35,562 bases of DNA from Folioceros fuciformis (taxonomy: Eukaryota), in the NCBI GenBank assembly GCA_049999805.1, contig JBNGIO010006258.1:240486-276047 (forward strand), read 5' to 3'. Under the pieces are notes generated by a model. The model was not told where the DNA came from and made no database searches. It saw nothing but the letters and a program-made list of their open reading frames with translations. The stretch's first letter is position 1. Each line of letters begins with the position of its first letter. Shown one piece after another: positions 5,376-35,394 of the stretch. Made by a program: the position numbers and the translations under genes.

Positions 5376-8300
5376 CTACAAAGGTTCTCGACTGGAGAGC
5401 TTGGGCGCAGATCGCCGCTTCGATGGGCACGCCGTTTCAGTGACGCAATCAACGTAGAAACGCGCACTTCCACAAAATCTGGTTGTTGACGTAGAATCCT
5501 TCTTCACTTTCAAGAAGAACGGTTTCAGCATTGCTTGACCTTTGGAATGCTTCCTATCCCCGGACAGAAAATTGTGGATCAATCCATCCACGTCTGTCCA
5601 CCAGCTTTGGCCTGGCTGCTTCCATGCCCCGATTTTCATTCTCATCTCCTGTACTTCCTGTGCTTGCTCCCACATTTGGGCACTGGTATAGATGTTTGAC
5701 ATCAAAACATATGCTGAAGTATCTTTCCTATCTAACTTTACTGCCTCAATGTAAGACTGGCATCCCACCACCACATTGCTCCACTTTCGACACGCACCCA
5801 AGAGAGCGTGCCAAACTCCCGCATTAGGACGTACAGGCATTGTCCTTACCAAAACTAGTGCCTCATCCAGTCGGCCTGCACGACCGAGGAGATCCACCAT
5901 GCATGTATAATGTTCCAGTGTGGGAGTGACGCTGTAGAGACTGCTCATGGCCTTGAAGTACTCTCGTCCTTTGTCCAAAAGTCCAGCATGACTGCATACT
6001 GTTAAAACACTAAGGAATGTGATGCTGACTGGCTCTATGCCATCCTCCACCATTCTCTGCACCGAGTCGAATACCACTTCACTGTCTCCTTGACAGGTGT
6101 ACCCTGCGATCAGTGCACTCCAGGTGAAAACATCTCGATCTGCCAAGGCATGAAACACCTGCTGTGCGTCAATCATGCTCCCAGACTTCCCATACATGTT
6201 TATCAAACTTCCGGCTATAGACAAGTTGGATTGAAGCCCTTGTTCTTCAACATGAGCATGTAGCTGCCTCCCTAGATGCAGGGCAGCCTCATTTGCACAA
6301 GCCTTAAGGAGGCACACAAAGGTCAGAGCGTTGAGGATTGCGATACCTTCTTCACGCATAACACGATAAAGAGCCAAGGCCTCCTGGTACATTCCCTGCT
6401 GGGAATACGCCACAATTAAATGAGACCACGTTGCCTCACTTTTTTCAACAAGTCCGTCAAACACTCTGCGAGCATCCTCTAGGCTGCCGCACTTTGTATA
6501 CATGTACACCAAACTGCGGCTGGTTAGATTCACGTCAGCTTCATGTCCTCGTCCTTTGATTTGTGCATGCAGCAACTTCCCCATCTCCAAAGCTGGGTAG
6601 CCAACGGTTGCACATGCCTCCAGGAGGCACACAAATGCCACCCAATCAAGCACAGGCAAGTCGTCGTCTTGCATAGTACCGTAAAGAAGTAGCGCTTCCT
6701 GGGCCATGCCCTGCTGGCAGTATCCCGTAATTAGAGCAGTCCATGTCACGACATCTTTTTGAACGAGGCCATCAAACACTCTTTGAGCATCGTCTAGGCT
6801 GCCACACTTTGCATACATATCTACCAGACTGTTGCCAACTAACACATCAGCTTCATGTCCTCGTTCGATTATCTGCCCATGGAGCTGCTTCCCATCTTCC
6901 AAACACATGGTGCCAACACTTGCACATGCCTGCAGGAGGCATGCAAATGTGACAGAATTGGGGACAGAGCTGCCTTCCGCTTGCATAGCACTGTACAGAA
7001 GAAGGGCTTCCTCGCCGAAGCCCTGCTGGGAATATCCTGCAATCAGAGCAGTCCATGTCACCACATCTTTTTGATTGAGTCCGTCAAACACACTCCGAGC
7101 ATCCTCTAGGCTGCCGCACTTTGCATACATGCTTAACAAACTGTTGGCTACGTACACATCAGTTTCTACTCCATGTTCCATGATTTGCGCATGAAGCTGC
7201 TTTCCTTTCTCTAAACCCAGGGTGCCAACACATGCACATGCCTGCAGAAGGGACACAAATGTCACGGAATTGGGTACAGCAACGCCTTCTGCTTGCATAT
7301 CACTGTAGATATGAAGGGCCTCCTGGCCCTTACCTTGCTGGCAATATCCCGCAATTAGAGCTGTCCATGTCACCACATCTTTCTGATTCAGTCCGTTGAA
7401 CACTCGCTGAGCATTGTCCAGGTTGCCACACTTTGCGTACATGTTTACCAAACTGCTGGCCACAGTTACATCCGCTTGATGTCCTCGTTCTCGAATTTGA
7501 GCATGAAGCTGCTCCCCCTTCTCCAAAGCTGGGGAACCCACACTTGCACATGCCTGCAGGAGGCACACGAACGTCACACAATCAGGTGCAACCTTGCCAT
7601 CTTCTGACATAAGACTGTGAAGATGAAGGGCTTCCTGGCCCATGCCATGCAGGGAATATCCTGCAATGAGAGCTGTCCAGGTCACCGCGTCTCTTTGACT
7701 AAGCTCATCAAACTCCCTACGGGCATCCTGCAAGCTACCACATTTTGCATACATTTGTATCAAACTGTTGGCTACAATTACACCACCTTGGTATCCACGC
7801 TCTCTGATTTCTGCATGAAGCTGCTTCCCCTTCTCCAAGGCTGGGGTGCCCACACTTGCACATGCCTGCAGGAGGCACACATATGTTACAGAATCAGGTA
7901 CAGTCACGCCATCTTCTTGCATGTCACTGTACAGACGAAGAGCTTCCTGACCCATGCCTCGCTGAGAGTATCCGGCGATAAGAGCAGTCCATGTCACCAC
8001 ATCTTTTCGCGCAAGTGCGTGAAACTCTCTCTGAGCATCATCTAGGCTGCCACACTTTGCATACATGTTTACCAAGCTGTTGCCTACAAACATATCTGCT
8101 TGTTTTCCACATTCTCTGATTTGAGCATGAAGTTGCTTTCCCTTCTCTAAAGCTGGGGTGCCTACACTTGCACATGCCTGCAGGAGGCACAGGAATGTCA
8201 CGGAATTGGGTTCAACACCACTTTCTTGCATAGCACTGTAGAGATGAAGAGCATCCTGTCCCCTGCCCAGCTTGGAGTATCCTGATAGCAGAGCATTCCA

Positions 8301-9272
8301 TGTTACAACATTTTTATCAACAAGTGCATCAAACACACCCTGAGCATCCTCTAAGCTGCCGCACTTTGCATACATGTCCACCAAGCTATTACAGACAAAC
8401 AAATCAGGTTCGAGCCCACTGGCCAGCAGATCTGCATGCACCTGCTGTCCAGCTTTCAAGTGCGATCCCCTTGCACAAGCCTGAAGTGCTGCCACAAACA
8501 CATGGCCATCTGGCTTCACACTTAACTTGCACATTCGGTGATACAGTCGTATGGCCTGCTTGTCTTGTCCATGTTTGACGTGCGCAGAAATTATAGAAGA
8601 CCACATGAAGGCATCTGGTGTGGCAACCATATTGAACACATCGGTAGCATCTTCCAACCTGCCATACGAGGAATACATTCGCAGAATGTGGTTGCACAAG
8701 AACTCGTCCGACTGATATCCATGTTTCACTGTTAAAGCATGGACGCGGCGACCCAAAACAAGATCCTTCTCGACCACACACTTCTTGAGGACAGTATAGA
8801 AGAGAGATTTGGAAATGCAGCAGTCTGCCTGCACCAGAATTCCCAAAGCCTCGACAGCTACAGTGAGATGGCTCTGGTGACAAAGCTTGCTCACGGTCTC
8901 AGCCGTTACGTCACTTTCAGATGCTGCAGCCCAGCAGGTATCGGGGTCATACTGCAATGTCGTTAGCCAGGGGACCCGATCGGACTCCCTATACCTCGAT
9001 TCAGCCCAAAAGACGATCTTGTTACCTGGCCTCCTAGCCTCTGTACAAGGTCCATCTCCAGGCAGACATCCTCTTAAACATGATGGTTCCCGTTTGAAAA
9101 TGCTGCACCTTGCCGCTACCTCTTGGTTGCTTGGAGCCAGGTGGGCGGGAGCTTGTCCTACGATACCTGTTATTGCACCACCTTTTTTACTACACGACGT
9201 GGTCCTCAACGGCATAGCCAAGCCGCAACCCTTTGCTATGGTGTAAGTCACATGACCGTGTAGATCACACAT
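5376..9272 (-). CDS. PLS-class pentatricopeptide repeat protein (29 PPR motifs, E1, E2, WW-type PG box, truncated DYW); probable organellar RNA-editing specificity factor
   Basis: Single 1298-aa ORF with the order L-S-(P-L-S)x8-P2-L2-S2-E1-E2. Hallmark strings are NSLVDMYAKCGSL, VVTWTALIAGY, FLSVLTVCSHAG, EHYTCMVDLLGRAG, YVLMSNIY, then KQPGQSWWTD. There is no in-frame HxE, CxxC or DYW. The true start codon is uncertain. Confidence 0.96.
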   Translation of the reverse strand: MCDLHGHVTYTIAKGCGLAMPLRTTSCSKKGGAITGIVGQAPAHLAPSNQEVAARCSIFKREPSCLRGCLPGDGPCTEARRPGNKIVFWAESRYRESDRVPWLTTLQYDPDTCWAAASESDVTAETVSKLCHQSHLTVAVEALGILVQADCCISKSLFYTVLKKCVVEKDLVLGRRVHALTVKHGYQSDEFLCNHILRMYSSYGRLEDATDVFNMVATPDAFMWSSIISAHVKHGQDKQAIRLYHRMCKLSVKPDGHVFVAALQACARGSHLKAGQQVHADLLASGLEPDLFVCNSLVDMYAKCGSLEDAQGVFDALVDKNVVTWNALLSGYSKLGRGQDALHLYSAMQESGVEPNSVTFLCLLQACASVGTPALEKGKQLHAQIRECGKQADMFVGNSLVNMYAKCGSLDDAQREFHALARKDVVTWTALIAGYSQRGMGQEALRLYSDMQEDGVTVPDSVTYVCLLQACASVGTPALEKGKQLHAEIRERGYQGGVIVANSLIQMYAKCGSLQDARREFDELSQRDAVTWTALIAGYSLHGMGQEALHLHSLMSEDGKVAPDCVTFVCLLQACASVGSPALEKGEQLHAQIRERGHQADVTVASSLVNMYAKCGNLDNAQRVFNGLNQKDVVTWTALIAGYCQQGKGQEALHIYSDMQAEGVAVPNSVTFVSLLQACACVGTLGLEKGKQLHAQIMEHGVETDVYVANSLLSMYAKCGSLEDARSVFDGLNQKDVVTWTALIAGYSQQGFGEEALLLYSAMQAEGSSVPNSVTFACLLQACASVGTMCLEDGKQLHGQIIERGHEADVLVGNSLVDMYAKCGSLDDAQRVFDGLVQKDVVTWTALITGYCQQGMAQEALLLYGTMQDDDLPVLDWVAFVCLLEACATVGYPALEMGKLLHAQIKGRGHEADVNLTSRSLVYMYTKCGSLEDARRVFDGLVEKSEATWSHLIVAYSQQGMYQEALALYRVMREEGIAILNALTFVCLLKACANEAALHLGRQLHAHVEEQGLQSNLSIAGSLINMYGKSGSMIDAQQVFHALADRDVFTWSALIAGYTCQGDSEVVFDSVQRMVEDGIEPVSITFLSVLTVCSHAGLLDKGREYFKAMSSLYSVTPTLEHYTCMVDLLGRAGRLDEALVLVRTMPVRPNAGVWHALLGACRKWSNVVVGCQSYIEAVKLDRKDTSAYVLMSNIYTSAQMWEQAQEVQEMRMKIGAWKQPGQSWWTDVDGLIHNFLSGDRKHSKGQAMLKPFFLKVKKDSTSTTRFCGSARFYVDCVTETACPSKRRSAPKLSSREPL

Positions 9273-9406
9273 GACTAGACATACAATTCAACAAATATCC
9301 TCGACCAAAAACTGAAACCGATCGTTAGAGTTCGCCATAACCATCTGTGATTCTCTCTTCCACAGAAACATCCAGTGGGGTGAACATCACGTTGTACAAC
9401 CATATT

Positions 9407-12162: not shown

Positions 12163-12630
12163 CTACACGAGATCTCTGCACACGCCGCAGGAGTCATCCT
12201 TCGGCAAGACTTCCGCAATGTTCCATGCATTGTCCCTTGCCTGCTCTGGCAGGCAGATTTCGTGTAGACATGATCACGATTGGTTCCTTGTGCGTGACTT
12301 TAGACATGACGATAGAATTAGTTGTAGTTGAAGAATGATCTGTAGTTGCATCTGGTAATAAAACTTAGCCTCAGCCCCCGTTGGGGTTTGTAGAGGACAT
12401 GAGTCCCGGACTCCTCCTGTCCAGAGTCTCCCGAGTTCCCAGCAGTTGGTGGAGAAGTGCACGTTGGAAAGGGAGGAGAGGCTGCAGCGCGGTGGTTACA
12501 GCGAATCCTGGAAAAGGAGCCTCCATGTGCGCTTATCACATCGCGGTAAGTATGCATGCAGGGAATCCTGGATTTGTTTAAGCCTTTTAACCCAACAGAC
12601 GCTTCGATCATCCCCTGAGCTGCTGAGCGC

Positions 12631-12638
12631 TATATAAG
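12631..12638 (+). promoter_or_regulatory. TATA box of the hevein-Hog gene
   Basis: TATATAAG about 120 bp upstream of ATG 12750, in otherwise GC-rich sequence. Confidence 0.6.
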
Positions 12639-12749
12639 CAAGCGCGGGCGTGCGCTGCGAGTATAGTCCACATAGCTTGCAAGCCCTGGAAGTCCACCAA
12701 GTCTGTCTCTCAAATATCGGCGACATCTTCCCCGGCGACGACGAGAATC

Positions 12750-13794
12750 ATGGCCACCGCAAGCCGCGTTCTAGCAGCTGTGTGCGCGACGCTGCTGCTG
12801 GTCCTTCTGTGCTCGCAGCTGGACACGGCCGCTTGCAGGTCCAGCCCTTCCAACAACAAGCCCGAATGCAGCAGCAGCCGGCTGTGCCCCAACAACCAGT
12901 GCTGCAACAACTACGGCCACTGCGGCTACACCGAGGCCTACTGCCACAAAGGCTGCCTCTCGCAGTGCGGCGACGGCAAGGGCAAGCCCAGGGGCGGCAA
13001 CAAAGGCTCGAGCTGCTTCCCGGGCGACGCGATCGTGCAGCTCGCCGGAGGCCGCGCCAAGCGCATGCGTGAGCTCGGGCTCGGCGACGAGGTTGGTTCA
13101 GTTTCCTGCACACCTCCCAAACCTCCCTCCCTCTCTCTCGCTGCACTCCAGAATCACAACATCACGAGCCACACTTCTCCTGCAGGTAGCAGTATGGAGC
13201 TCCAAGACGGGGACCATGTTATACGACCCCGTGTACGCGTTCGGGCACAAGGACCCCGACGCGGAGGCGGAGTTCGTGGCCATCCACGCCGGCGCGGCCT
13301 CCTTCCTCCACCTCACCGCCAACCATTTCCTCCCGACGGCGACGCCCACAGGACGGGCACCAGTGTACAAGCGAGCGCGGGACGTGCGGATCGGGGACCT
13401 GGTGTGGGCGGGAGCTGGAAACGACACAGCTCCCAGCGTGAGGAAAGTGAGCGGGATCTCCATCACAGTCCGACAAGGCCTGTACAATCCGCTCACCATG
13501 AGTGGGACCATCGTGGTGGACGGCGTGGTGGCGTCGGCGCACAGCGACTGGTTCCTGGACCCGCTCTTCGACCTGCTGCGCATCCCGCACCACCTTCCCG
13601 CTGCGTACCAGGCCGTGCTGGCTCCTGTTCGCCTGCTGTACCATGCGCTCGGGAAGCAGGTCTACAGCAGCATCTACAGCGCGCTGGACTCCCGCATCGA
13701 TCTGGCCAGCTTCGGGAGCCAGCACGGCGGCACCGTCTTCACGCTCCTCCTCGTCCTCGCTTTGTCGGCCTCATTCATCTCGTCGTCCAGGTGA
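12750..13794 (+). CDS. Secreted hevein (CBM18 chitin-binding) - Hog (Hedgehog Hint + sterol-recognition region) autoprocessing protein, 316 aa
   Basis: Exons 12750-13091 and 13186-13794, separated by a 94-bp phase-0 GT-AG intron. Signal peptide; 8-Cys hevein CSSSRLCPNNQCCNNYGHCGYTEAYCHKGCLSQC; G/K linker; Hint blocks SS|CFPGDAIVQL...KRMRELGLGDEV, LHLTANHFL, ARDVRIGDLV and GLYNPLTMSGTIVVDGVVASAHS; SRR-like YQAVLAPVRLLY; hydrophobic C-tail. Confidence 0.93.
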
Positions 13795-14053
13795 GGCTCA
13801 CCTGTCGGGACCAACTCTTGCCAAATGTCCTGCTTGCTTTCACACGCCTCCCAATCAGACCTAAATGCATCCACCATCCCTATGTCAATGTCAAGCCACA
13901 CCATCATCACTCCATGTACATATCTATGTGCAGCAGATACATGTACCCCATTTAGGGTTGTTATTTATGTTTATTAATTACGAGTATTATGCAAATAGAT
14001 ACATCCTCCTTAACAATACTAGAAGATTTACAACATTAATGATACACCAAGTG

Positions 14054-17000
14054 TTATACATGTTTTGATACAAGGAGGCCTTCCACTTCTTCTAAGCTAC
14101 CATTAGACAACAATATACTGGTCTCCTCCCTCTTGGCATCGTCGGATTCCAAGACATTTTCCTTCTCGTCCTTTCCCTTTCCCACCTCCTTCCACATGGG
14201 CGTGGGTGGTTGAAACTGCTGTAAGATTTCCACCACTTCTTGCATCGAGGGTCGATGGATAGGCATCAAACTTGTACACAGCAATCCAAGTTGGAGCAGC
14301 CTGGACATACTGTCATCCCACTCTTTCTCCAATGCAATGTCCCGCAGTTCAACCCCTTTGGCCCATTGGTGAGCTGCCCACGCAGCTAGAGTGACCCCTT
14401 CTCCAAACGCCTTGACATCAAGAGGCTTCCGTCCTGTCACCAGCTCCAACAAAACTACTCCAAAGCTGTACACGTCGCTCTTCTCGGTTATTTTGTCCGT
14501 GTAGCTGTACTCTGCAAAAAAGCAGCATACCGAGGGGGTGTTAACAGGGATCCGGGACTGTGCTGGTGGGAGTGCTTGACGGAGTGGTAGAAGAACCTGT
14601 CTGGGAAGGGACAGGTCGCGGGATCGATCTGAAGCAGCATACCGAGTGGGGATTAACAGGCATCCGGGACTGCGCTGGTGGAGGGGCTTAACGGAGTGGT
14701 AGAAGAACCTGTCTGGGAAGTGACAGGTCGCGGGATCGAACTCAAGCAGCATACCGAGGGGGTATGAACAGGGATCCGGGACTGTGCTGGTGGAGGGGCT
14801 TGACGGAGTGGTAGAGGAACCTCTGGAAACTGTCTGAAAAGGGACAAGTCGCGGGATCGAACTCACCTGGCGCAATGTAGCCTCTGGAACCGGCTACGGC
14901 GGTGACCACGTCGCCTCCCGAGTTGGTGCCGCTCAGTTTGGCGAGCCCGAAGTCGGAGAGACAGGCCTCCAGGTCGGCGTCGAGCAGAATGTTGTTGGCC
15001 TTGACGTCGCGGTGCAGGATCTGGCCGTCCGGCGCGTGGTGGTGGAGATACGCCAGCGCGTCGGCTACGCCTACCGCGACGCGGAACCGGCTGTGCCAGT
15101 CCAGCCCCTCGCCTGCCGGTGGCGAGTGGAGGAGGTCGCCCAGGCTCCCGTGCGGCATGTACTCGAACACCAGCAGGTTCCAGTCGCTGGAGGCCCCGCT
15201 GCACAGGAGCTTGACGATGTGCCGGTGGCGGGTGCTCCGGCCAAGCGTCTGAACCTCGGCCTCGAACCCGTGATCTGCGTACTTTTTCGACCGCGGCCCC
15301 GTTGGCCTGGGGAGCAGCTTCGCCGCCACGGTCGTCCCGTCCCGAAGCTCCACTTTGTATACCCGCCCTGACGCACCGGACCCGATCAGGCGCGCCGCGC
15401 CGAGGCCAGACAAGACCTCCTCGGGTTGGAACCACAGGTCCTGGAACGACTTGAAGGACCACTGGGCGTCGTCGTCCGCAACCTCGCGAGCCCGCAGGAT
15501 GCGCCTCCATGCCAGGCAGCATCCGATCGCGGCGAGAGCCAGGCCTGCCACGACCGCCAGGGTCACCCAGGGCCAGGCCCGGGACCGGCGCGCGGGGGGG
15601 CTCGGGGCCGCGGTTGGGCAGGGTCGGACGCCCGGGCCGCACAGGCCCGGGTTGTTGAGGAAGGAGTCGCCATAGCCGTCGGTGTCGAAGGCCGGCGGGA
15701 TCGGGCCCGACAGGTCGTTGTTGGAGACGTTGAAGGAGCTGTAGGTGCTGCGGAATCCGGGGGGGATGGCGCCGGATAGTTTGTTGTCGGAGAGGTCGAG
15801 GCGGGAGAGACTGGAGATGTCGGCGAGAGATGGCGGGATGGAGCCAGAGAGTAGATTGCTGGAGAGGTCGAGCTGCACCAGAGTCGAGCAGTTTCCCAGC
15901 TCGGACGGGATGCTGCCGGAGAGGCGGTTGGATTGGAGGAAGAGATCTCCCAGCACCTTGAGGTTGCCGAGACTCGGCGGGATGGCGCCTTCCAGGAGGT
16001 TGTAAGAGGCGTTGAAGCGCAATAGTGAAGACAGATTGCCCAGCTCTGGAGGGATCGGGCCGGAGAAGCGGTTGTTGCCGATCAGCAGCATGGTGCGATT
16101 CGAGGAGGCGCCTGCTTCCGGCGGGATGGTGCCGTTCAAGAGATTGTTGGACAGGTCCATGTAGTCCAGTCTGGGGCTACCCCAGAGCTCCTTGGGGAAG
16201 CTGCCGGTTATGTAGTTGCTGTCGATGCGGAGGCCGTGGAGGGAGCTGCAGTTGGCGTAGGAGGCCGGGAAGGGCCCGGAGAAGGCGTTGGACTGGATGG
16301 CGAAGGTACTCAGCTGGCCGCCGTTGCATGCGGCCCAGGGCACGGGCCCGACGAAGTTGTTGGACGCTATCTCGAAATCCTTTAACGGGCTATTGGCGCC
16401 GAAGGTCGGTGGGAAGGGCCCGCTCAGCAGGTTGTTGAAGATGGTGAAGTTGGTGAGCTTCGTCAAGCTGGCCATGGCTTCCGGCACGCTGCCTGTCAGC
16501 GAATTGTTCTTCAATGAGAACAACATCAGGTTCTTCCACTCTCCCAAGTCCTGTGGGAATTCCCCGCTCAACTGGTTCCCGGCCCCGGAAAATTCCTCCA
16601 TGTTCACCAGCTTCCCCATCCCGGACGGCAGGCTGCCGCTCAGCTGGTTGTTGTCGAAGAGGAAGCCCGTCAAGCTGGTGAGCTCCGTGATAGACTGCGG
16701 GATGGATCCTGAAAGCTGGTTGTTTACAAGGTACAGGGTTCTCAGATTCTTGAGCGACGACACTGAATCCGGGATGGAACCTGTGAGCAAGTTCGAGCTC
16801 AGATCAAGAGCATAGAGCGAAGTGAGGTTGCCGATGGAGTCGGGGATGGCGCCGGAGAGGGAATTGTGAAGAGCCTGGAAGTCCTGCAGCTGCGTGAGGT
16901 TGCTCATATCTGGAATGCTCCCGTTAAGCAGGTTGCTCCCTAGGTGGAGAAAGGTCAGGTTCCGGAGGCTGCCGATGGACCTCGGGATGGGGCCTGTCAG

Positions 17001-17837
17001 CATGTTGGCCGTCAGATCCAGCTGCGTGAGATTGGTGAGCCTCCCAATGCTTTCCGGGATGGAGCCAGTGAGAAGATTGAAGCCGAGATTCAGCAACGTC
17101 AGTTGTGTGCTGCCGATGGATTCGGGGATGGTGCCCGTCAAATTGAAGCAGTGATCCGCCTGAAACACCTGCAGCTGCGTCAGATTGCTGAAATCGAGGA
17201 GCATAGTTCCCTCCAACCCGAGGTTCGTGTCGACCCGGAGCGTCTGCAACGTCGCCAGCTTCCCATACGCGGGAGGGATGCCCCCGGTGGTGAAGAGGTT
17301 GGAGTGTAGCATCAGCGTTTGGAGCCTCCCTAACTCTCCGATGGAGGGAGGCATGCTCCCGTTGAGGTAATTCTCCGCCAGGTCCAATGTCTCCAGGTTC
17401 TGGAACACGGCGAACTTGTCCGGCAGCTCGCCCCCGACCATTGTGAGCCGCACCTGCATGAACGTCAGCCCGGTGCAGTTGAAGAGGCCGTCGGGGAAGT
17501 CCCCGCTGATTCCCGTCATGTTGTACAGCAGCAGCACCTGCAGGGTGGGGATTTTGCAGAAGGCGGGCACCAACGGGCCGGACAAGTCGGCGGAGGAGAT
17601 GTTGAGCCCAGTGACCACCTCGACGCCTCCGCTGCTACTGCACTGCACGCCGCTCCAGGAGCACACTGGGATGGAGGTGGTCCAACTCGCCAGCGTCCCC
17701 CCGGGATCCTCCAGGGCTGCTTTGAATGCCATCAGGTTCGCCATGTCCGACTCTGATCCTGCTCGGCCTCCCCGAAGCAGGTGCAGGACCAGGATCAGCC
17801 ATGCTAGCAGCAACGGCACGCGGCCGGAGCAAGCCAT
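14054..17837 (-). CDS. LRR receptor-like kinase, subfamily XI (HAESA/HSL-like), RD kinase
   Basis: Exon 1 17837-14867 carries a signal peptide, WxxxxxVCSWSGVQC cap, ~27 LRRs, NNPGLCG cap, TM helix, WSFKSFQ juxtamembrane, IGSGASGRVYK, HRDVKANNILLD, DFG and GSRGYIAP. Intron 14866-14512 lies at the conserved GYIAP|E position. Exon 2 14511-14054 reads EYSYTDKITEKSDVYSFGVVLLELVTG...RPSMQEVV. Confidence 0.96.
14520..14865. repeat. Three tandem ~112-120-bp copies filling the LRR-RLK intron
   Basis: AAGCAGCATACCGAG.GGG...ATCCGGGACTG.GCTGGTGG...ACGGAGTGGTAGA.GAACCT...GTCGCGGGATCGA starts at ~14520, ~14632 and ~14744. Confidence 0.93.
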
Positions 17838-20176
17838 GGGGAGCCCCGACCTCCTCCACCTCGCCCCGGCAGCAGCACACAAGGCTACCCAAGACTATGT
17901 CCGATCAACCAGGTCAAGACCTCCGCACCGCAAGGCAACTTCATGTGGGGTTGGCATAGTTGAAGGAGTCTTTGGTGGGGCGAAGTGGTTGGTAGTAGCT
18001 GTCGCCAGGATGCTGCGGATGCGGGGCCGAGCCGCCCTCGTGCCTTTTTGCTTTCAGTGACGATATATATTCGGTCAAGCAGTGAAGAACCTTCTCTTCC
18101 GTCGCGAGTCGGTGAAGGTACTCACTCACTCACGCCATCAACCGGCCTTCGCTGTGTTGTGCATCAGTCCAAGATGTTCCAGTCAACTTCTCCACCTCAG
18201 CATACAGGCATGTTCCTCGTTCCCCTACTCATGCCCCATGGCCACCACATTCGACCTCGTCCCGTAAGACAGGGTGGGTGAAAGATGTGGTCACCGTTAA
18301 GAACCGGTTTGCGACCGGTTTTCGAAACAGCCATCTCCCTCCCGGAAGCTGCTCCCGTTTTCGTCCAGGTCGGAGGATGGTGAAGATTTCTCCTTACCGC
18401 AACTGAAAACCTCGGAGAAGGTGGGCTCCAGGTCTGTGAATTCTAGCATCTTTCTGCATGATGTGCGTACGCAGGAGGGCCCGCCTATGACTAATCCTCA
18501 TCCTGTTACTCTTGATGGTGTGCCGGAAGCCTTGTCCCTGCTCTGGTGTTTTGAAGTTACAAACAGCCAGGCTGCTTCATATCGGTACACTCTGAAAGGA
18601 GGACAACAGCCAGGACTGTCAGATACCACACTAGAGATCCATGTTCAGCAGCAACTTCTCCTTGAGCTTCAACTCAGTGATGACTGCATCAGGAAATTTC
18701 TTAGATTATGTTTTGGAATCGCAGCAAGCAAGTCTGGGAACAACAATCCAAGCTGTAACTCTTGTTCAGAAGGATCTGCAGACCTTCTGGACAGCAGGAT
18801 GTAGAGGAAGAGTGAAGTGGCAGTGACAGTCATATGACGCCACTCACTTTTCCAACCCCACGGAGCTATACTCGACGCACAACACTACTCCACTACCAGA
18901 ATCCGCCTGGCTTCATCCTCCACTAACGACGCATCTCGATGTGTGGTTCTCTAGGTGCAACGTGTGGTGTGAAAGCTCGAGATGCTCTCAGACGCAGGAT
19001 CTAAGCGTGCTCGTATCCAGAACTTTTCTACTTGTGTGCCTTGTTGGCGTGCCTCCCAAGGTAGTTCAGTTCACCACGACGAAGAGATGATATCATGCAT
19101 TCACGGACAGTCTCTTTTGTGTGCTAACAATTCGTTTTCGTAGGAATCGAGGTGCAATGTGTTCCTCAGACATCCTTCGGGACCCTGGAGAATATTCTTT
19201 CCATGACGTAGGAAAGTTCGGCATTGGCAAATGATCTTCCATCGGTTGGAGGGCATAGGTGGGGCTTGAGGAGTGGGAGATAAGGGGTGGGGATTGAGGC
19301 GTGGGAGTGGAGAACTGTGGCTTGAGGTCTTTGGGGTGAACGGAGATTAAATTTTGCTACTTCGTAGTCGCCTGGCTGTGTCTCTGTCATCTCCTATGTG
19401 CAGAGAAGATTCCACCCGAGGTTCGTCTCATAACATGGGTCCCATCACCAGCATGGGCATGGGTGAGGAACGTACATGCACATTGCAGTCTATCTTGGTT
19501 AAATAGTAGCGAGTTGTGCGATCTCGACCACTAACATTGATCCAGAGTAAACTATATGTACATACATACCTTGCCATGGCGTCCGGATAGTGGTGTAGGC
19601 AGTGAAGCTCGGTGCTACTTGATTCAAAGCAGTGTAGGCGAAGCCGGAACCTAAAGGAGGCGTGGCCTGTTCGTCGTGACAATAAATAGCATTGATGGAG
19701 AACGGCGTTCAGCCAAGACTTCTTCCACGCTACTACTACCCAGTCGACCACCACATTGCTCTCGTCCAACCTGAGGTCTCGTTGGGACGTGGTAACGTTA
19801 CCTTTTTGTCTTTCCCCGTTCGCAACGACGGTACACTCGGCTTCTTGAGCCAATTTTGGGGACAGCTGCCGTGGGTAATTACCTCCTCTGTACCATCGGG
19901 ATGCCTGTCCTTCCAGTGTCCGCCAGAAGGGAAGAGCTTTGACGGTGCCTGGGCCTGCTGTCTGTGCCGCTCCTTGCAGCTGTTCTTCTTGCTGGTCCAG
20001 GCTGCGATTACGCCGCTGGCTGTCCTGTTTCTTCAGGTGTCGTCTTCTAGATTCTGAGGTCCTCTACCACGCTTTGTGCAGATTTTCAGTATGTTGTAGC
20101 CAGCATTCGGTCTTGCTGACTGCAGATCGCTTTCGGATGCATTAAAGCGCGTCATCGGTCCTTCTGTGCAAGCAGA

Positions 20177-22150: not shown

Positions 22151-22464
22151 CTCCTGGAATTACGTGGCAGGCTGCACCATGTGAATAACTGGGTGGTGGT
22201 GGTTGGTGCTGGTCTAGTCAAAAAGGGGTGAGTATATTTCCTAAAAATTGCTTGGAGAGTGTGCCGAAGTCGTCCCGGGGAGACTGGCCTTGTGCATATT
22301 TAAAAGCTTCAGCGAAGTCAGGATAGATGGTCAGCTCCTTCTCCTTGTGGCAACGATGAATCTAGTGACTTAAGGGGCTGACGAGACATCGCCCGGCTGA
22401 GATGGTCCTGGGAAGGATGGTCTGTTATACTACGGTTGACGGGGTATTGGTATCCGGTTGAATC

Positions 22465-22578
22465 GGTTCTTATCCGGTTCTATCGATAGTTTCTTATCCT
22501 GTTGAATCGGTAGTTTCTTATCCGGTTCTATCGATAGTTTCTTATCCGGTTGAATCGATAGTTTCTTATCAGGTTGAA
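22465..22578. repeat. 24-bp tandem repeat, ~5 copies
   Basis: TTCTTATCCGGTT(C/G)(T/A)ATCGATAGT units, reading as (Q/E)PDKKLSI repeats in minus-strand ORF 22430-22903. Confidence 0.88.
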
Positions 22579-23056: not shown

Positions 23057-26000
23057 TCAATAATCAGCAGCTGAAGTCCTGCGAGAGCCTCGCCTCACAT
23101 CATTCTGAGAGTTTTGCATTTTCGAATGACCATGCGGCTTATAACCTAGATCAGCACTCCCATCGTTACTCCCTATGTCCGAGCTGGCATAGGAGGAAGA
23201 CTTATGCATGGGAGACAGGGGTGGGAGACCTGAAAACATCTTTCCAGACTCCGAATCAGACAAACTAGACAGTGAAGGCTTCCTTCTATGCCGATCGTGA
23301 GGCATACTCGGTGTGAAGCCAATGCGACTTTTTTGGGATGGGAATGACACAGGAGGGTTAGCATACGCTTGCATACGCCTTATTGCATTGAATTCTGCCT
23401 GTGTGGTTACCTCCATGAAACATATAGTGTTGATGCGAGTCCTCCGCAACTCAAAGGGCAGCACCTCTGTACTGATTTGATGAGCAAGTGCCTGCACGTC
23501 CATCGACACGCCCTTGGTCAGGTCAATGCATACTTCACACGGTTTCCATTGGTCAAAGCATACTTCACACGGTTTCCATTGGTCAAAGCATACTTCACAC
23601 GGTTTCCATTGGTCAGGTCAATGCATACTTCACACGGTTTCCATCCCACTCAAACCAACATCCATCGCCAATACTCACAAGAATGTCATCCGGTGACATT
23701 TGCATTACTCTCTCATCCATGTTTCCATCGTCGCTGCCTCTGCCCAAACCCCTACGAGAGCCAGCAGCTTCTCCAGAATCTCCTAGAAGCTCTAGTACCT
23801 TCTCCAACAGCAGATCCCTCAAAGTCACAGAGGCTTCCTGTGCTGCTGGACTGAGAAATGCTCGTAGAATAGCTTCGATATAGTCCAGCTGGCGAAGAAA
23901 TAAAACAGAGTTGATCAGAGAGTGCAGTCAACGGACCAGAATTCATATGGACCAGACTGCTGCATTTCTTCTCAGGGCACTGACCTCCAGCATCAGTTGA
24001 CAGAAGCCATTGATGTCCAACGTTCTCAACACCTGAGTCTTCTGCTCACTGAAGATATTAACCAGGGCATGCATAAGCCCCTCCACGAGAACACCAACCA
24101 CCCGTTCGAGGAATGGTCGTGCACCAGCATACACCTACACAAGGTAGCCAATGTCAGTGCACATCACAGAAACATGGGTAAGCATCACTGATCAGGTGGA
24201 GCGAACGTACCTCCGCATGCACAGCAACAAGAGGATGGAGCAACTCCACAACATCATACCGAATACCCTAAATTACGAGAGGATTGCGTAAGCAGTGTTG
24301 CACGTAACAGAAAAAACCTGTCATGACGTGACGGCTGGTTCCAACACAAATAGTAGACAAACCTTCACTGGAGGGGCAGAGGCTAATTGCATGGCATCGT
24401 CTAAAAGATAAGCAGCAGCTGCAACGCCTATGACTGAGGCCTGTAGGAAATCAGTTATTAGAATTTGCTACCAACGGATAAGGATCCAAGGACCGTTTGA
24501 ATGATAAAGTGCTCGGAAGTGCTCACTTTTGAAGATGAGTACATTTCAAGAATCTTTTCCTCCAGATCTGTTAATGCCTCGACAGCATCCTCCGCAGTCG
24601 CTGCATTATCATCGTTAGGCCCCTTACCCTTGGGGACTTGGCTCACACTGCAAAAAAGAACATCGTATGAATTATAACCCCTGGTGTTCAGCAGAACATG
24701 AAAATGAAACATCAGTGTGACTTGTTGAAACCTTCCCTTCGGCCTTACCCAGGATGGAGCCACACTGGCTTGTATTTCTTACTTAGTTCAGGCAAAAGGT
24801 AGGTCTTGCAAAACCCACAGTTGCTCAAAACCATAAGTAGTCTTTGGTGAGGGCTGACCACTTCCACACCTGCTTGAAGGCCTACAAACTTATCATCTTC
24901 AATGAGGCCATTCTCTGACTCTTTATCACTATGAAGTGCTGCCTGAGATAATTCCAGCGCCAATTTCTCCAAAGAATCTGGCATCAGAATATGCCATAAC
25001 ATGATGAGATGACGGCCACAGTTTTCAAATTCCATATTCAAAAGCACAAACAGAAAAGAATACCAAATGTACCAGCTAGGTCAAGAAAACATTCGAAGAA
25101 GGTAAATCTCACTGAGTCCTGCATAGAGAAAACTTGCTCCATCATATCCTCATGCAGCCCTGAGGCTTCACTTCTTAACCTCTCAATCATTCTGCAACAT
25201 TAAAGCACCATCAGTGACAACATTGCTCTGCAGTTACAAAGGGGATAAGATCATGAAGCTACAACTTTGAAAACGCATTCTAACCCCGACTCGAATTCAC
25301 ATAGGTTTGCCGTAGCTGCTGCTGCAGCGTAGAGAGCTCACTCTTTCATGTGCTCCATGGAAGAGACAAGCATCTCTTGGAATCTCAGTGGTAGAGCAGA
25401 TACGGAGAAGGGAGACCCGTATCTCTCTGCCGTTGGCACTGGTGACCAATCTTCATCATAAACGAGCTCTGACGTGGCCCCTCTCATCAATGTACACAGG
25501 CGCAATACAAAGACCTTTGTAATTTCCGTCCGCAAAACTAGAAGTGCTTGCACTGAACGGAGTGATGATCACAACAAAAAACAATGTCTTAGAATAACTC
25601 CACATATACCGTATCGCATCTTTTGGAAGACCAACACATTGCACCACACCCCATAATGCTTTAATACATGGACCCTACCTGCACTAAGAGGAGCAGCATC
25701 TTTTGCTTCTAGAGCAACGCACGCTTTTGAAATCTCCCCCACTGCCTCCCGCATGTAAGGTCGCACAACAGTTGCCTCTGCTAGAGCTGTGAAGGCGTTT
25801 TGCACCTACCCGAAGCAATTCAATTCCAATAGTAAGCAGCTTTTCCCACCCATTTCACCGCTCACAGTAAACACAAGACAAGAAATGGCTAGCAGCAGTA
25901 AGCAGCCTTGGATAGTAACTACAGATCTCAGAACTGGTGCAAATATGCAAGGAACTCACATACCTTACTCTCATACAGGGCAATGATATTATGAACCATC

Positions 26001-30742: not shown

Positions 30743-33700
30743 CTATCTAGTCCCGCGGCCCACGAATCCTGACTCGGGCCTGGAGGGTTGTACCTTGTCG
30801 GCATACTCCTTGATACGCGACTTCAGGCGACTAAGCTGTTTGTGCAACCCAAGGAACGCATGGCGCATGCGCTTGAACCGGTCCCTGGAGTCGATAAAGG
30901 CGTCAGTTAAATCCCCGTAGATCGCCGCAAGCTTTATCTTGTCCTCAGCAGCCTTTGCCTGATCGACGCCCGCCCGGAACTCGTCAAAGGGGCGAGCACA
31001 CCTCTGCAGAGCTGTGTTCAGGCGGAGATAAACATCATACTTCTCACCGTATTCCGTGACGCACCGTTTATACTCTTCCATATTTCCAATCGGACCTTGC
31101 AGCTCTTCAGACAGCTTCTCATAGGGAGCAAACCACTGGTCCTCCACGGGATCTCTTGCAACAGTCCTCTTCTTCGCAGAGAAACCATCTGCAGAGCTCT
31201 CTTTCTTCTGCACACCCATCTTCGCAGGAACGGGAACGGAATCTGAGGATGGCCTTGCCTGCTGGTGGTCCATCTGCCTCTTTGCACTCTCCTGTCTATG
31301 TGACACAACTCCCCCGCCAGCTCTCTCAGTTTTGGACTTGACAATCTGGGAACTTGTCACACTTGGCATGTTTGATTCCTTCTTCATGGCCTTCCTTGAC
31401 TCCATATGCCCATCTGCAGCATCCGCTGTTCTCTTCGTCCCCCTTCCACCGACCTTACCCTTCGCAGTATCTGCACCCTTGCCAACTGCAGCCTCCGGCT
31501 TTCCTGTGACCGCAGCCTCGAGTCTGACGGGTGTTAAGTCAGACCTTTGTCCATCTTTCGTCCCGCCAGGACTCCTCTTCGCTGGAGAGTCTCTTCTTAC
31601 ATCGTTGACCCTGCCTGCCATCCTACTCAAAGCCTCGCCAGCAGCGGCGTCCTTCACCGCCTCATTCTTGTCCTTGACCATTTGCTTCCCGCTCTCGATA
31701 TCATCCAGTTCACCTGATTCCCTGTCAGACCTCAGTTTGCCTCTATCTTCAACTCCTTCTCTAATCTCTCCGTCGCTCAACATCCCACTTTCTTCTGCTT
31801 GCTCAGCCCCAGAAGACTTCAAAATTTTCGCTCTTTTAGCTTGAAGCTCTGCACCTGGCATCGCCCTGTCTGGATAATTCTGCCTTTTCGAAGACTCGAA
31901 TTCGCGACTGCGCCGTCTGATCTGATCTGGATTGTTAGGCCACCCATGCATTTCATACTGATCCCTACCAGTGACAGGAAACGTCTCAACATTAGGCCCA
32001 GGTCTTCCCAACAGGCTTGGCTCCCCATGATTCTTCCTGTAATGTTCTGCCACTGCAACTGCTGGTGTATCAGTCGCTTTCAACGGTGGCTCTGCTCCTG
32101 GAGCCTTTGCCGTCTGCACATTCTTCGATGCCTTCCTCCCACCAGGAGCATTGCTAGCTTTCATCACGGGCTTTTGGCCCTTTGGTTTTCCAGCTGCCAC
32201 ACGTGGAGCTTCACTTCCCCGAAGTGGAGACAAGTGTTGTTGTAACTTCCCTCCTGCAGAACTGGAGTTTTGGCTCAAGTGAAACCCCGTCTGCTCCACA
32301 GCGCTATCAGTCAGAAAAGGAGCACCAAGCTCCTGGGAACCCTCTGCAGATGCAGGGGAAGACTTTTTGGCCGCTTGTGCTGACACATGTGTTTTCCCGG
32401 ATGAACCCTCTCCTCTAACGTTCATTCCGACCCCTAGTCCTGTTCCCTCTGAGATATCCTTGCTGGAAGGTTTAGCCTCCTTTGCAACAGCAGGCCCACG
32501 TCTATCCTTGTCAATAGATGGCCCCCGTCTGGCCCCTCTGTTTTGCGCTTTCATCTCCAATGCTTCTATACTGTTATCAGACTCCGAACTCCTGCACTTG
32601 CGAGAATCATCTGTAGACCTGTCACCTGCATTCGCAGCCTTCAGTGCACCCCTATCTACCGATTCATGCTGTCCACCAGGAACATCAGCAACCACCTTCT
32701 GGTTATCAATCAAGGAGGCCACTCGGGGTGAAGGTGGGGCTCCTTCTGAGGAAACAACATCAATTTCTTCGTCGTCCTCATCATCACCTGCGAGGGCTGG
32801 TCTTTCAGTTCCAGCCAGATTCTCTGCACCCAGTTGTTCAGCATTCCAAGGAGGTGTTGGCTCCAGTCTCTGGACATGAGGAGAAGGTTCCTTGTTTTCC
32901 CCTTTTGGTTTCTCGTTCTCATCGTCACTTACAATATTTACATCCTCATCCCCACCCTCATCTGCACTGTCGTCGTCCCCACTGCTGCTGGAAGTGTCGC
33001 TATCACTGTCACTCCCACTACCACTCTCGCTTCCACTCCCACTTCCGCTGTCGCTGTCACTACCACTGCCAGAGCTGGTACTTTCACCGCCATCACTGTC
33101 ATCGGGTGTTTTCGAAGGCACCTCCTGAGCCCTAGAGGGTGTGTTATCTGCAGAAACGCCATCTTCCCTGATTTGGTTACCCCCAGGAGCCATAGCTGTT
33201 CTATCAGGGCTTGCAAAAGCTTGAGAACTTTTCTGCTGAACATCAGGTCGAACAGCAGACGCAGTTTTCTGGGGGCCTTCCTCCGTTTTACTATTAGTCT
33301 TCCTAATTGGAGGCCTCTGAAATTGCTTCACAGCAGTTGGAGCCTCTGTTGCTTCCTTCCTAACGTCTTGCTCATCCATTGCAACCACTTCTAATGGTAC
33401 ATCCGATGAGACATCTGGTGGAGCCGGAGAATCTGCAAGTGATGGAGAGTCCACAGGTACAAAGTCAGGTGAGTTTCCCGAAGGCTTTGTCACAACTCCC
33501 TTTTCGACCCCTTGCTTGAGCAAGTATTTCCCTGGTGCAATAAAGGTGGCTATTTGCTTCAAAATTTTCTCCATGTTCTTCTTCCTTGCGGCCTGCAAGC
33601 TAGGCTGGCAATCTCCTAACGCCCTCTCCAAAGCCTTCATCGACATTCCTTTCGGGTTGTCCGTTAGCAGCGTGATCAGACAGTTCCGAAGGTCACCACC

Positions 33701-34693: not shown

Positions 34694-35394
34694 GCTCTCC
34701 TATCTCCTGCAACAGATATCGCAATCCAACATATCTAAATCCACGCAATTCAACTCACATCAGCTCCCTCCCACGCAGGCCATGCAGGCCAAAAACACAC
34801 CAAATCGGCCTCAAACTGCACAATTCACCATAACACCATCCCTCCTTACCAAATTAGCTCTCCTTCTCTTCCTTTCCTCCACAAAGGCCGCTGAGTTTCG
34901 CTGGAACAGTTGCAGACGAGAGTGATCAACCCTCCCCCGGCGCTACCGACGCCAGTGCACCTGACGCACACATGTTGCTGGCGCTGGCGCTGGCCCCTTG
35001 CCAAGAGGAGACGTCGCAGGAAGGACGTGGCCATGACCAACGTTCTGACCCCGGCTTCCGAGGGAGGTTCTCATATTTCTTCCTTCAAAGTCTCCCCAGC
35101 GAAGAAAACTAGTCCTTTAAGAAACACGTTCAAGGACAAATGCTGCATTACCAAATTAAATCGCCTCCAACCAACCTACACCCACTCCCCCACACACAGC
35201 ACCAACATATGCTTGGAATAGTAACAACCCTATTCAGACTAAGTCCTGTACTTCTATATTGAGTATTTTGGATTAGCTCTCATATTACATTATGATACAT
35301 ACTTCAACATCGTAATATAGTATGAGTAATAATATGATAATATGAGCTTTCAGTAGGACATAGCCTGTAAATGCCTGTAAATCTTCCAATTGTA

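Follow-up and report, generated by a model that had tools for sequence, protein, structure and literature searches.

A Folioceros fuciformis gene joins a predicted secreted hevein domain to a Hedgehog-type autoprocessing (Hog) domain

Introduction

What does a Hedgehog-type autoprocessing (Hog) domain do behind a small chitin-binding domain in a land plant? The question is raised by a gene in a 35,562-nucleotide stretch of Folioceros fuciformis DNA (contig JBNGIO010006258.1, positions 240,486 to 276,047; hereafter the window). Hevein-type peptides usually come from precursors whose C-terminal pro-domain is removed post-translationally. The original prediction for this locus, made from the sequence, proposed that the Hog domain cuts itself off and may hand the hevein peptide over to a sterol.

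Hog domains had already been described in non-seed plants, as that prediction stated: the survey of Buerglin (2008, PMC2362128) reports 'Hog' proteins from Selaginella moellendorffii and Physcomitrella, and from that year on Hogs of mosses, lycophytes and algae have been on record. The portions of the literature searched describe no function, product or adduct for them. The search returned no functional paper on any plant Hog protein or hevein-Hog fusion, in agreement with the earlier remark that no such description was known, and none in which a plant Hog attaches a sterol to a protein. The present gene bears on whether plant Hog domains cleave themselves, whether protein sterylation occurs outside animals, and whether the branched intermediate formed through Cys143 is a late animal addition. 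It is a convenient entry to plant Hogs, with a small and well-understood cargo, an easy chitin-binding assay and a precursor of 316 residues.

Results

A two-exon gene, expressed and spliced

The open reading frames of the locus fall in two frames, which had been read as a single gene interrupted by a 94-bp intron. This reading holds: one spliced 316-aa protein is encoded on the + strand by exons 12750-13091 and 13186-13794, and the ATG at 12750 is the only one between the upstream in-frame stop and the open reading frame.

12631-12638, + strand: TATA-like element, about 112 nt 5' of the ATG (pattern match only)
12750-13091, + strand: exon 1, 114 codons, with the signal peptide, the hevein domain, the linker and the first 26 Hint residues
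13092-13185, + strand: intron, 94 nt, GT..AG, phase 0
13186-13794, + strand: exon 2, 202 codons plus a TGA stop, with the remaining Hint domain, the helical region and the hydrophobic tail

The Pfam matches, the codon composition and a contig of run X3, whose RNA status is a guess, show a genuine gene that is expressed and loses its intron as predicted. This contig lacks exactly the 94 nt of the predicted intron. Its alignment passes from 13089 to 13184, which with the cut moved by +2 is the predicted junction 13091/13186 with GT..AG ends, and it matches the window with 0 differences over 12746-13089 on the exon 1 side and over 13184-14200 on the exon 2 side. Run X3 belongs to a study other than that of the DNA runs and carries the identical organism label; the intron is retained in DNA run X1. 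As the X3 contig (6597 letters) extends past 14200 into a convergent receptor-kinase gene, it is uninformative on transcript ends. The Pfam Hint profile covers positions 9-37 in exon 1 and 43-162 in exon 2, so that the splice joins the two parts without a gap. Homologues are continuous across the junction, and one of them (P0060, see below) carries identical residues on either side of it. GC3 is 0.86 in the spliced coding sequence, and the GC content of the intron is 0.55. A tblastn search of the window with the spliced protein returned the gene itself only, all remaining matches having E > 1. The scan for bacterial-type promoters and terminators was empty, such a scan not being applicable to a plant gene.

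The neighbouring genes agree with the land-plant setting that had been assumed: one encodes an E-motif PPR protein and the other an LRR receptor kinase with an LRRNT_2 domain, the latter lying 260 bp downstream on the opposite strand.

A hevein domain ahead of the Hint cysteine

12750-12836, + strand: predicted signal peptide, residues 1 to about 28/29 (hydropathy only)
12867-12968, + strand: hevein / CBM18 chitin-binding domain, residues 40-73, with eight cysteines (Pfam Chitin_bind_1)
12969-13013, + strand: Gly/Lys-rich linker, residues 74-88, ending in Ser88 at the -1 position (sequence)

Residues 1-29 have a hydropathy of 1.8-2.1, and relatives of the protein start alike. Exon 1 matches Chitin_bind_1 over residues 43-73 (E 1.2e-7), and with 32.3 bits the match stands above the Pfam cut-off of 27.8, as had been anticipated. 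All eight cysteines, at 40, 46, 51, 52, 58, 65, 69 and 73, keep hevein spacing. The same fold with eight cysteines is found in hevein, pro-hevein, hevein-like antimicrobial peptides, class I chitinases and wheat germ agglutinin (CBM18), and sequence matches in the PDB run from pokeweed lectin-C (E 1.5e-15) through wheat germ agglutinin and hevein down to E 1e-4. The domain differs from these in a shorter first inter-cysteine loop (5 residues) and in an Asn in place of the usual Ser before the aromatic pair.

Hevein contacts its sugar through one Ser and three aromatic positions. The segment on the sugar face reads 'ccnnyghcg', compared with 'ccsqyghcg' in one domain of wheat germ agglutinin. 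Tyr55, His57 and Tyr64 would occupy the aromatic positions (aromatic or imidazole), with Asn53 replacing the sugar-contact Ser; the assignment of Asn53 and His57 to the contact positions presumes the numbering of the hevein contact residues. Judged by its sequence, the domain looks functional. Chitin binding is plausible, with Asn53 in place of Ser and His57 at one of the aromatic positions counting against it. The fragment ahead of Cys89 is computed to be basic (pI 8.9, 8 Lys+Arg vs 3 Asp+Glu) and is by sequence comparable to hevein-type peptides, which are small, basic and secreted.

What sets the protein apart from known heveins is its C-terminal partner, a Hog domain rather than a Barwin domain, a GH19 domain or a propeptide removed by a protease. 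The signalling domain of Hedgehog, the Hedge domain, is absent: at E <= 1, Pfam recognises nothing in exon 1 besides Chitin_bind_1 and the beginning of Hint. When the exon 1 protein was compared with longer proteins, none of 371 candidates reached E <= 0.001, a blank that weighs little.

An extra cysteine, Cys29, lies at or beside the predicted signal-peptide cleavage site and, if retained, would be an odd cysteine.

A Hedgehog-type Hint domain with an altered active site

13014-13016, + strand: Cys89, Cys1 of the Hint domain and predicted nucleophile of the N-to-S acyl shift (sequence, family alignment)
13246-13248, + strand: His135, where Hedgehog has its general base Asp46, Asp303 in Drosophila numbering (phmmer alignment to 6tyy)
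13315-13326, + strand: Thr158-x-x-His161, the TxxH of block B, T69 and H72 of Hh-C (alignment to Drosophila Hh-C)
13534-13542, + strand: Ser231-Ala232-His233, with Ala232 at the position of Hedgehog Cys143 (alignment to Hh-C)

The Hint profile (PF01079) matches exon 2 with 77.6 bits (E 1.3e-21) and begins in exon 1, where residues 85-113 score 20.9 bits, alone below the cut-off; the expectation of a Hint match is thereby borne out. The motifs named in the original prediction, SS|CF with Cys89, LTANH, the GLYNPLTMSGTIVVDGVVAS block and the eight hevein cysteines, were all recovered.

Sequence comparison and a predicted structure place the Hint part with Hedgehog rather than with inteins. Its best sequence matches in the PDB are two entries of Drosophila Hh-C, 6tyy (E 1.6e-4) and 1at0 (E 3.2e-3). 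The AlphaFold2 model, which covers exon 2 only, has a mean pLDDT of 94.1 and a pTM of 0.85. With Foldseek it superposes on 6tyy and 1at0 at an rmsd of 1.5-1.6 A over 120-121 columns (E 3.7e-10 and 1.6e-9), with a TM score of 0.77, normalised to the target, against these top matches. Inteins rank next in the fold search, at E 9e-6 or worse.

The active site is another matter. A Hog-type Hint domain had been predicted, and Cys1 and TxxH are indeed present; however, the Hedgehog active site as a whole is not matched, Asp46 being replaced by His135 and Cys143 by Ala232. The D46H mutant structure 6tyy outscores wild-type 1at0 in phmmer. We aligned the window protein with 155 relatives (156 rows). 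Cys1 is a cysteine in all 106 rows covering the column, position 46 is a histidine in 137 of 139, and Thr or Ser at 69 and His at 72 each occur in 142 of 144. In the Ser-x-His motif the Ser is kept in 155 and the His in 150 of the 156 rows. By this conservation Cys1, His46, Thr/Ser69 and His72 look under selection. Position 143, in the same 156 rows, is A in 60, C in 33, S in 28, V in 19, T in 13, P in 2 and D in 1; as it varies freely, the clade is evidently independent of Cys143.

A His general base can work, by analogy with Hedgehog mutants: D303H in Drosophila Hh-C is reported to retain structure and activity and to broaden sterol tolerance (PMC9163320), and D46H Sonic hedgehog undergoes processing in cells (PMC12054796). 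C143A and C143D, on the other hand, each abolish processing of Sonic hedgehog in cells, where Cys143 is reported to be indispensable (PMC12054796). The active site thus has by nature the general-base His that Hedgehog received by engineering, and lacks the Cys143 that Hedgehog needs.

A conserved helical region and a hydrophobic tail

13558-13728, + strand: helical region, residues 239-295, in the place of the sterol-recognition region (SRR), also called the adduct recognition region (ARR) (AlphaFold2 helices, conserved columns)
13729-13782, + strand: hydrophobic tail, residues 296-313, a predicted membrane anchor, possibly a GPI-type signal (hydropathy)

AlphaFold2 places helices at 239-244, 248-258, 260-269 and 271-285. 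These 57 residues after the Hint domain are conserved from green algae to land plants, with Tyr255-Gln256 and Pro261-x-Arg263-Leu264 nearly invariant. In the first SRR helix of Hedgehog, Pro379 is described as absolutely conserved and Arg381 and Leu382 as conserved (PMC7242414); the spacing of Pro261-x-Arg263-Leu264 equals that of these three residues, which is a pattern match and not a tested alignment. Motif K, which lies within the SRR, is kept in moss and Selaginella Hog domains according to Buerglin (2008, PMC2362128). Pfam at E <= 10 finds nothing past the Hint core in the last 88 or the last 103 residues, Hint profile positions 163-213 included. The helices that had been called sterol-recognition-like are therefore confidently predicted as helices, but have no Pfam match to a sterol-recognition region. 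Since the tail region is without a Pfam match, we can only infer sterol transfer.

The predicted hydrophobic tail stands, with a mean hydropathy of 2.0-2.07 over its 18 residues. Among the 16 plant-clade relatives examined, 13 have a tail with a hydropathy of at least 1.38. Such a family-wide tail would, from its sequence and position, tether the Hog part and not the hevein part to the membrane.

Relatives in the green lineage and the origin of the fusion

Among named proteins, the nearest relatives come from Selaginella, Ceratodon, Marchantia and Diphasiastrum, with 43-52% identity over the Hog part. Database entries from Selaginella are called 'Hint domain-containing protein', 'warthog protein 6-like' and 'indian hedgehog B protein'; hypothetical proteins from Ceratodon purpureus, Marchantia paleacea, Diphasiastrum complanatum, Gonium pectorale and Scenedesmus are also relatives. 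The green-lineage Hogs share Cys1, His46, T/SxxH, Ser-x-His and the conserved helical region with the window protein, and those of land plants also its C-terminal hydrophobic tail. In the tree, the window protein falls within a supported clade of 17 rows (99/96) together with named green-lineage Hogs.

Unlike the window protein, no named relative has a hevein domain. What precedes the Hog module in them ranges from a few residues or a Pro-rich stretch to small Cys-rich modules and a domain of about 230 aa without a Pfam match; the Selaginella members have almost no cargo ahead of Cys1. Across the family the Hog module is found behind hevein, B_lectin, Cys-rich, Pro-rich and the ~230-aa non-Pfam cargos, or behind almost nothing. 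Such interchangeable and unrelated cargos on one module would fit a self-removing carrier.

Only two further hevein-Hog proteins were found, P0060 (309 aa) and P0197 (312 aa), both from short assembled contigs of public runs. The first homologue search with exon 2 listed 50 proteins, all of them Hint only. P0060 was absent from that list and was found by an exhaustive search, and the blank of the first search on hevein fusions is therefore unreliable. Like the window protein, P0060 and P0197 have a signal peptide, Chitin_bind_1 (36.4 and 31.9 bits) and a Hint domain starting at Cys1 (92.9 and 101.6 bits). The Hog part of P0060 is 44% identical to that of the window protein, and the hevein domains of the two share 38-48% identity with the one in the window protein across 23-34 residues. 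They differ from the window protein in keeping a Cys at position 143, in an almost absent linker and in a weak tail, with 18-residue hydropathies of -0.04 and 0.91 vs 2.07. The two form their own starred clade apart from the window protein; the AU test does not reject that the fusion arose only once (p = 0.119). Hevein is, on these sequence comparisons, a rare but not unique cargo of a known family of green-lineage Hogs.

Discussion

From sequence and by analogy with its family, we propose that the Hog domain is probably a membrane-tethered, self-removing pro-domain that releases a basic hevein peptide of about 6 kDa. The steps after translation are inferred from sequence and family knowledge. 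The signal peptide would direct the precursor to the ER, where the hydrophobic helix 296-313 would hold the Hog part to the membrane on its lumenal side and four disulfides would form in the hevein domain. The peptide bond between Ser88 and Cys89 would then be converted to a thioester through Cys89, aided by Thr158 and His161, and the thioester would be resolved by a nucleophile activated by His135, for which water is one candidate and a hydroxyl compound bound in the conserved helical region another. A peptide of about 59-60 residues (6.2 kDa), basic and ending at Ser88, would be released and secreted, and the 24 kDa Hog fragment would remain in the membrane. The released peptide may bind chitin in antifungal or anti-herbivore defence, or bind chitin fragments. 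Counting against the pro-domain reading in the sequence are the Ala at the position of Cys143, the Ser, not Gly, at -1, the Asn53 and His57 of the hevein domain and the potentially odd Cys29. At -1, a position that 106 relatives cover, G (31) and S (24) lead, followed by N (10) and A (8).

Compared with animal HhC (1AT0, 6TYY), the window protein shares the Hint fold, Cys1, TxxH and a predicted secreted N-terminal cargo that would be released at the residue preceding Cys1. It departs from animal Hedgehog in having no Hedge signalling domain and no context of a Hedgehog pathway, and from animal HhC in His for Asp46, Ala for Cys143, Ser rather than Gly at -1, an SRR undetected by Pfam and an added predicted C-terminal membrane anchor. 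The warthog, groundhog and quahog proteins of nematodes also combine one Hog module with interchangeable secreted N-terminal cargos, according to Buerglin (PMC2362128), although their cargos are unrelated and their lineage is different.

The pro-domain reading would add a new route to hevein-type defence peptides in plants. If the thioester is resolved by hydrolysis only, the gain is modest: a known class of peptides would have a new pro-domain. If a sterol or another lipid is the acceptor, the product would be a lipid-anchored chitin-binding peptide and the first Hedgehog-style protein sterylation outside animals, and the natural His general base without Cys143 would point to a simpler, perhaps ancestral reaction.

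Sterolysis, in which the 3-beta hydroxyl of a membrane sterol, a plant sterol of the ER bound by the helical region, attacks the thioester so that the hevein peptide carries a sterol ester at Ser88 and is thereby anchored in the outer leaflet, is in our view unlikely. It gains from His135 at the general-base position, where a His is reported to support sterol transfer by Hh-C with a broader sterol tolerance, from the conserved and confidently predicted helical bundle, from the Pro-x-Arg-Leu spacing and from the retention of motif K in the mosses and Selaginella. The predicted anchor would moreover place the active site beside a sterol-containing membrane. However, the last 88 residues are without any Pfam match, the likeness around Pro-x-Arg is a pattern match, and the Cys143 needed for the Hedgehog branched intermediate is Ala. 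Sterol transfer is described as not established even for the Hog proteins of nematodes, which is why the SRR was renamed the 'adduct recognition region' there. We give the same low weight to the broader form, transfer of the hevein peptide to a membrane sterol or other hydroxyl lipid. Sterol esterification, put forward in the original prediction as a possible outcome, may occur but is unsupported. Coupling to a fungal sterol, which had been suggested as well, is weaker still: it requires an uncleaved precursor at the cell surface, and nothing in the analysis favours that.

It is also doubtful that the precursor stays whole, with an inactive Hint domain as the stalk of a type I membrane or GPI-anchored hevein lectin, for example as a component of a chitin receptor. 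The Ala at the position where C143A abolishes Sonic hedgehog processing would be explained, as would the strong hydrophobic anchor predicted at the C terminus, and the adjacent receptor kinase gene is weak evidence in the same direction. However, a near-invariant Cys1, His46, Thr/Ser69 and His72 is hard to square with a mere stalk, the family is evidently independent of a freely varying position 143, and display makes little sense for the near-cargoless members in Selaginella.

Inteins, which have the Hint fold in common with the pro-domain proposed here, carry a C-terminal Asn and a downstream extein nucleophile and ligate their flanks. Intein-like protein splicing is very improbable, as is a decaying or non-functional gene: the Hint domain ends in Ser-Ala-His-Ser without a terminal Asn, and after it come the helical region and the tail rather than an extein, Hedgehog beats inteins in both sequence and structure matches, and the open reading frame is intact, spliced in the X3 contig (guessed RNA), at a GC3 of 0.86 and with all catalytic and structural cysteines kept.

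Gene structure and protein architecture

The region 12750-13794 is occupied by one gene on the forward strand, and its spliced product of 316 residues joins a hevein domain to a Hog domain of the Hedgehog type. The open reading frame opens at 12627, after an in-frame stop, and from that stop to the coding sequence there is a single ATG, at 12750.

Features of the gene and its product
12631, + strand: TATA-like element (pattern match)
12750-13091, + strand: exon 1, 114 residues
13092-13185, + strand: intron of 94 nt, GT at its start, pyrimidine run and AG at its end
13186-13794, + strand: exon 2, 202 residues and stop
Residues 1 to about 29: predicted signal peptide, hydrophobic N-terminus (hydropathy only)
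Residues 40-73: hevein/CBM18 domain with eight Cys (Pfam Chitin_bind_1, E = 1.2e-7, 32.3 bits against a cut-off of 27.8)
Residues 74-88: Gly/Lys linker (sequence reading)
Residues 89 to about 234: Hint domain, Cys89 first (Pfam, 77.6 bits on exon 2)
Residues 239-295: helical region (AlphaFold2 model)
Residues 296-313: hydrophobic tail (mean hydropathy about 2.0)

The original prediction of an intron with its junction at 13091/13186 is now supported by three independent lines. Pfam places exon 1 residues 85-113 on Hint profile positions 9-37 and exon 2 residues 6-121 on positions 43-162, so the profile is unbroken across the junction. The homologs P0060 and P0003 show no break there and have the same residues on either side. 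Finally, a contig from X3, a run presumed (by guess only) to be RNA, from a study other than that of the DNA runs under the same organism label, omits exactly these 94 nt (GT..AG) with 0 other differences; the intron is present in the DNA run X1. As the X3 contig continues into the convergent receptor-kinase gene, it is uninformative on transcript ends. The spliced coding sequence has 951 nt and a GC3 of 0.86, and the intron a GC content of 0.55.

Both predicted domains, hevein and Hint, were recovered by Pfam, and the sequence of the proposed scissile bond, Ser88-Cys89, had been read correctly. In the PDB, the hevein domain matches pokeweed lectin-C (1.5e-15), as well as wheat germ agglutinin and hevein. 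The AlphaFold2 model of exon 2, built with 69 aligned family members, has a mean pLDDT of 94.1 and a pTM of 0.85. Its beta part matches the Drosophila Hedgehog autoprocessing domain (6tyy, E = 3.7e-10; 1at0, E = 1.6e-9) with an rmsd of 1.5-1.6 Å and a TM score of 0.77 normalized to the target, and inteins rank below both structures.

Active site

The active site of the Hedgehog Hint domain consists of C1, D46, T69, H72, and C143 (PMC12054796). Two departures from it, at positions 46 and 143, had escaped the original prediction.

Active-site residues, with window equivalents from a phmmer alignment to Drosophila Hh-C and family counts from 156 rows
C1: Cys89; Cys in 106 of 106 covered rows
D46: His135; His in 137 of 139
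T69: Thr158; Thr/Ser in 142 of 144
H72: His161; His in 142 of 144
C143: Ala232; variable (A 60, C 33, S 28, V 19, T 13, P 2, D 1)

As the 155 relatives are the best matches to the window, these counts describe its clade rather than all Hog domains. The presence of His135 explains why the window protein scores higher against 6tyy, the D46H mutant (E = 1.6e-4), than against the wild type (E = 3.2e-3). According to a review, the D303H/D46H protein retains its structure and activity and has a widened sterol tolerance (PMC9163320), and D46H Sonic hedgehog is processed in cells (PMC12054796). Together with the conservation of C1, T69, and H72, this indicates that the half of the machinery that forms the thioester is conserved and evidently under selection and that, by analogy with the active mutant, His135 is a competent general base. 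The C143A and C143D substitutions abolish the processing of Sonic hedgehog in cells (PMC12054796), so the Hedgehog-specific branched-intermediate step cannot occur in the window protein, which has Ala232. On either side of position 143 (window residues 231-233, nucleotides 13534-13542), this clade hardly varies, with Ser in 155 of 156 rows and His in 150 of 156. The free variation of position 143 between these nearly invariant flanks, combined with His46, points to a conserved catalytic arrangement of another kind, Ser-x-His plus His46, which we did not find described in the literature examined.

Given the residues kept, we consider it fairly probable that the precursor self-cleaves. With Ala232 in place of the Hedgehog cysteine, it could also stay uncleaved as a membrane-anchored lectin, an outcome that we regard as unlikely beside the conserved Cys89, Thr158, and His161. 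Intein-like splicing, or a non-functional gene, is highly improbable.

Proposed mechanism

We infer all the steps that follow. The precursor would be imported into the ER, where the tail helix would hold the Hog part at the lumenal face and the hevein domain would fold with its disulfides. An N-to-S acyl shift at Ser88-Cys89, aided by Thr158 and His161, would then form a thioester, to be resolved by a nucleophile that His135 activates. A peptide of 59-60 residues (6.2 kDa, pI 8.9, eight Cys) would be freed and secreted to bind chitin, and a 24 kDa fragment would remain. Chitin binding is plausible: no disulfide is lost, and one segment, "yghcg", also occurs unchanged in a wheat germ agglutinin domain. 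It is uncertain in view of the short first loop and of Asn at the position where Ser is usual. Overall, a product bearing a sterol or another lipid seems doubtful, and for the sterol ester and fungal sterol of the original prediction, analogy is the sole support. The gene offers a compact, testable entry to the question of whether non-animal Hog domains cleave and lipidate their cargo.

Hog family in the green lineage

An exhaustive search with exon 2 returned 3074 representatives at E <= 0.001, 22 of them at E <= 1e-30. The best named relatives, annotated as hypothetical or "Hint domain-containing" and 43-52% identical to the window protein, are from Ceratodon purpureus, Marchantia paleacea, Diphasiastrum complanatum, and Selaginella moellendorffii; green algae come next. 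The gene is a member of the plant Hog family described from Physcomitrella and Selaginella by Buerglin in 2008, who noted motifs J and K besides a signal peptide, and that the motif-J cysteine is lost (PMC2362128). A maximum-likelihood tree was built from 31 Hog domains, hand-picked from about 200 proteins (the best matches, those with names, and a few that are distant). In it, the window protein falls within a supported 17-row clade (99/96) of plant proteins and is weakly sister (84/61) to a small-cargo Selaginella group. The literature searched contained no work on the function of a plant Hog protein.

The Hint profile match ends at position 162 of 213, and Pfam gave no match for the C-terminal region at E <= 10. 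The region after Hint is conserved in green algae and land plants alike, and AlphaFold2 models it confidently as four helices, with the tail helix after them. Tyr-Gln and Pro-x-Arg are nearly invariant in the family. In the Pro-x-Arg-Leu motif of the window protein, the three named residues are spaced as Pro379, Arg381, and Leu382 are in human Sonic hedgehog, within its first SRR helix (PMC7242414), a likeness of pattern only. Of the 16 plant-clade relatives inspected, 13 have a hydrophobic tail (hydropathy of 1.38 or more), as does the window protein. It would anchor the Hog fragment rather than the hevein peptide.

Rarity and origin of the hevein cargo

The hevein domain is absent from all named relatives examined. 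What these carry instead ranges from a few residues through a Pro-rich stretch or small Cys-rich modules to a domain of ~230 residues without a Pfam match. Two related fusions, missed by the original prediction, are encoded on short contigs: P0060 (309 residues) and P0197 (312 residues), with Chitin_bind_1 (36.4 and 31.9 bits) directly ahead of the Cys1-Hint domain. Chitin_bind_1 occurs in two of the 69 sequences of alignment A3 (window exon 2 and 68 relatives). Among 5.8 billion proteins, a P0060 and P0197 profile had 91 matches, with both domains in P0060 only; P0197 is a member of the P0062 cluster in that search. Another sequence of alignment A3, P0106 (798 residues), has repeated B_lectin (mannose-binding lectin) motifs before its Hog domain (551-758), a second kind of lectin cargo in this Hog clade, so lectin cargos recur.

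P0060, P0197, and the truncated P0207 form a clade (starred in the 31-row tree) apart from the window protein. P0060 and P0197 have Cys at position 143, nearly no linker before Cys1, and no strong hydrophobic tail (-0.04 and 0.91), a feature absent from their clade, whereas the window protein has Ala, a Gly/Lys linker, and a strong tail (2.07). From these sequences, it looks like the hevein-Hog fusion arose twice independently. Constraining all four proteins to one clade costs only 10.2 log-likelihood units, with an AU p of 0.119, which does not reject a single origin. In the literature searched, papers joining "hevein" and "hedgehog" were all unrelated, by title, and those joining "chitin-binding" and "Hog domain" were intein papers, none on such a fusion. 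The window gene represents a known family, functionally unexplored, with a new type of cargo.

An N-terminal cargo domain of ~210-260 residues, without a Pfam match, is common to P0053, P0054, P0055, P0057, P0059, and P0208 and conserved between mosses, a liverwort, and a lycophyte (Ceratodon, Marchantia, and Diphasiastrum among them). A hydrophobic stretch follows it directly before Cys1, and the domain is probably the "conserved upstream region" of Buerglin 2008 (PMC2362128).

Genomic neighborhood

Neighboring genes
5376-9287, - strand: PLS-type PPR protein with E motif, intron-less open frame of 1303 codons
11241-11732, + strand: double-stranded-RNA-binding motif (dsrm) exon, E = 7e-9, about 1 kb upstream of the Hog gene
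14054-17894, - strand: LRR receptor-like kinase gene (LRRNT_2 cap, LRRs, kinase), convergent to the Hog gene
30743-34699, - strand: low-complexity Ser/Asp/Gly-rich protein with C-terminal Occludin_ELL, open frame of 1318 codons

These neighbors identify the locus, by their sequence, as land-plant nuclear DNA. The stop codons of the Hog and receptor-kinase genes lie about 260 nt apart, and their 3′ ends probably overlap, since the X3 contig spans the Hog gene into the receptor-kinase gene.

The PPR protein has a DYW-like start and then breaks off, and the 312-nt periodicity of its gene appears as tandem repetition over 6441-8384. In the receptor-kinase gene, a 112-nt unit is repeated at 14520-14822 (2.7 copies, 90% matches), within the kinase part and apparently in or beside an intron, and is visible as peptide repeats in two open reading frames. 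Two further arrays, at 22451-22578 (24/48-nt unit, 5.5 copies) and 23521-23644 (30-nt unit, 4 copies), lie inside - strand open frames as repeated peptide units.
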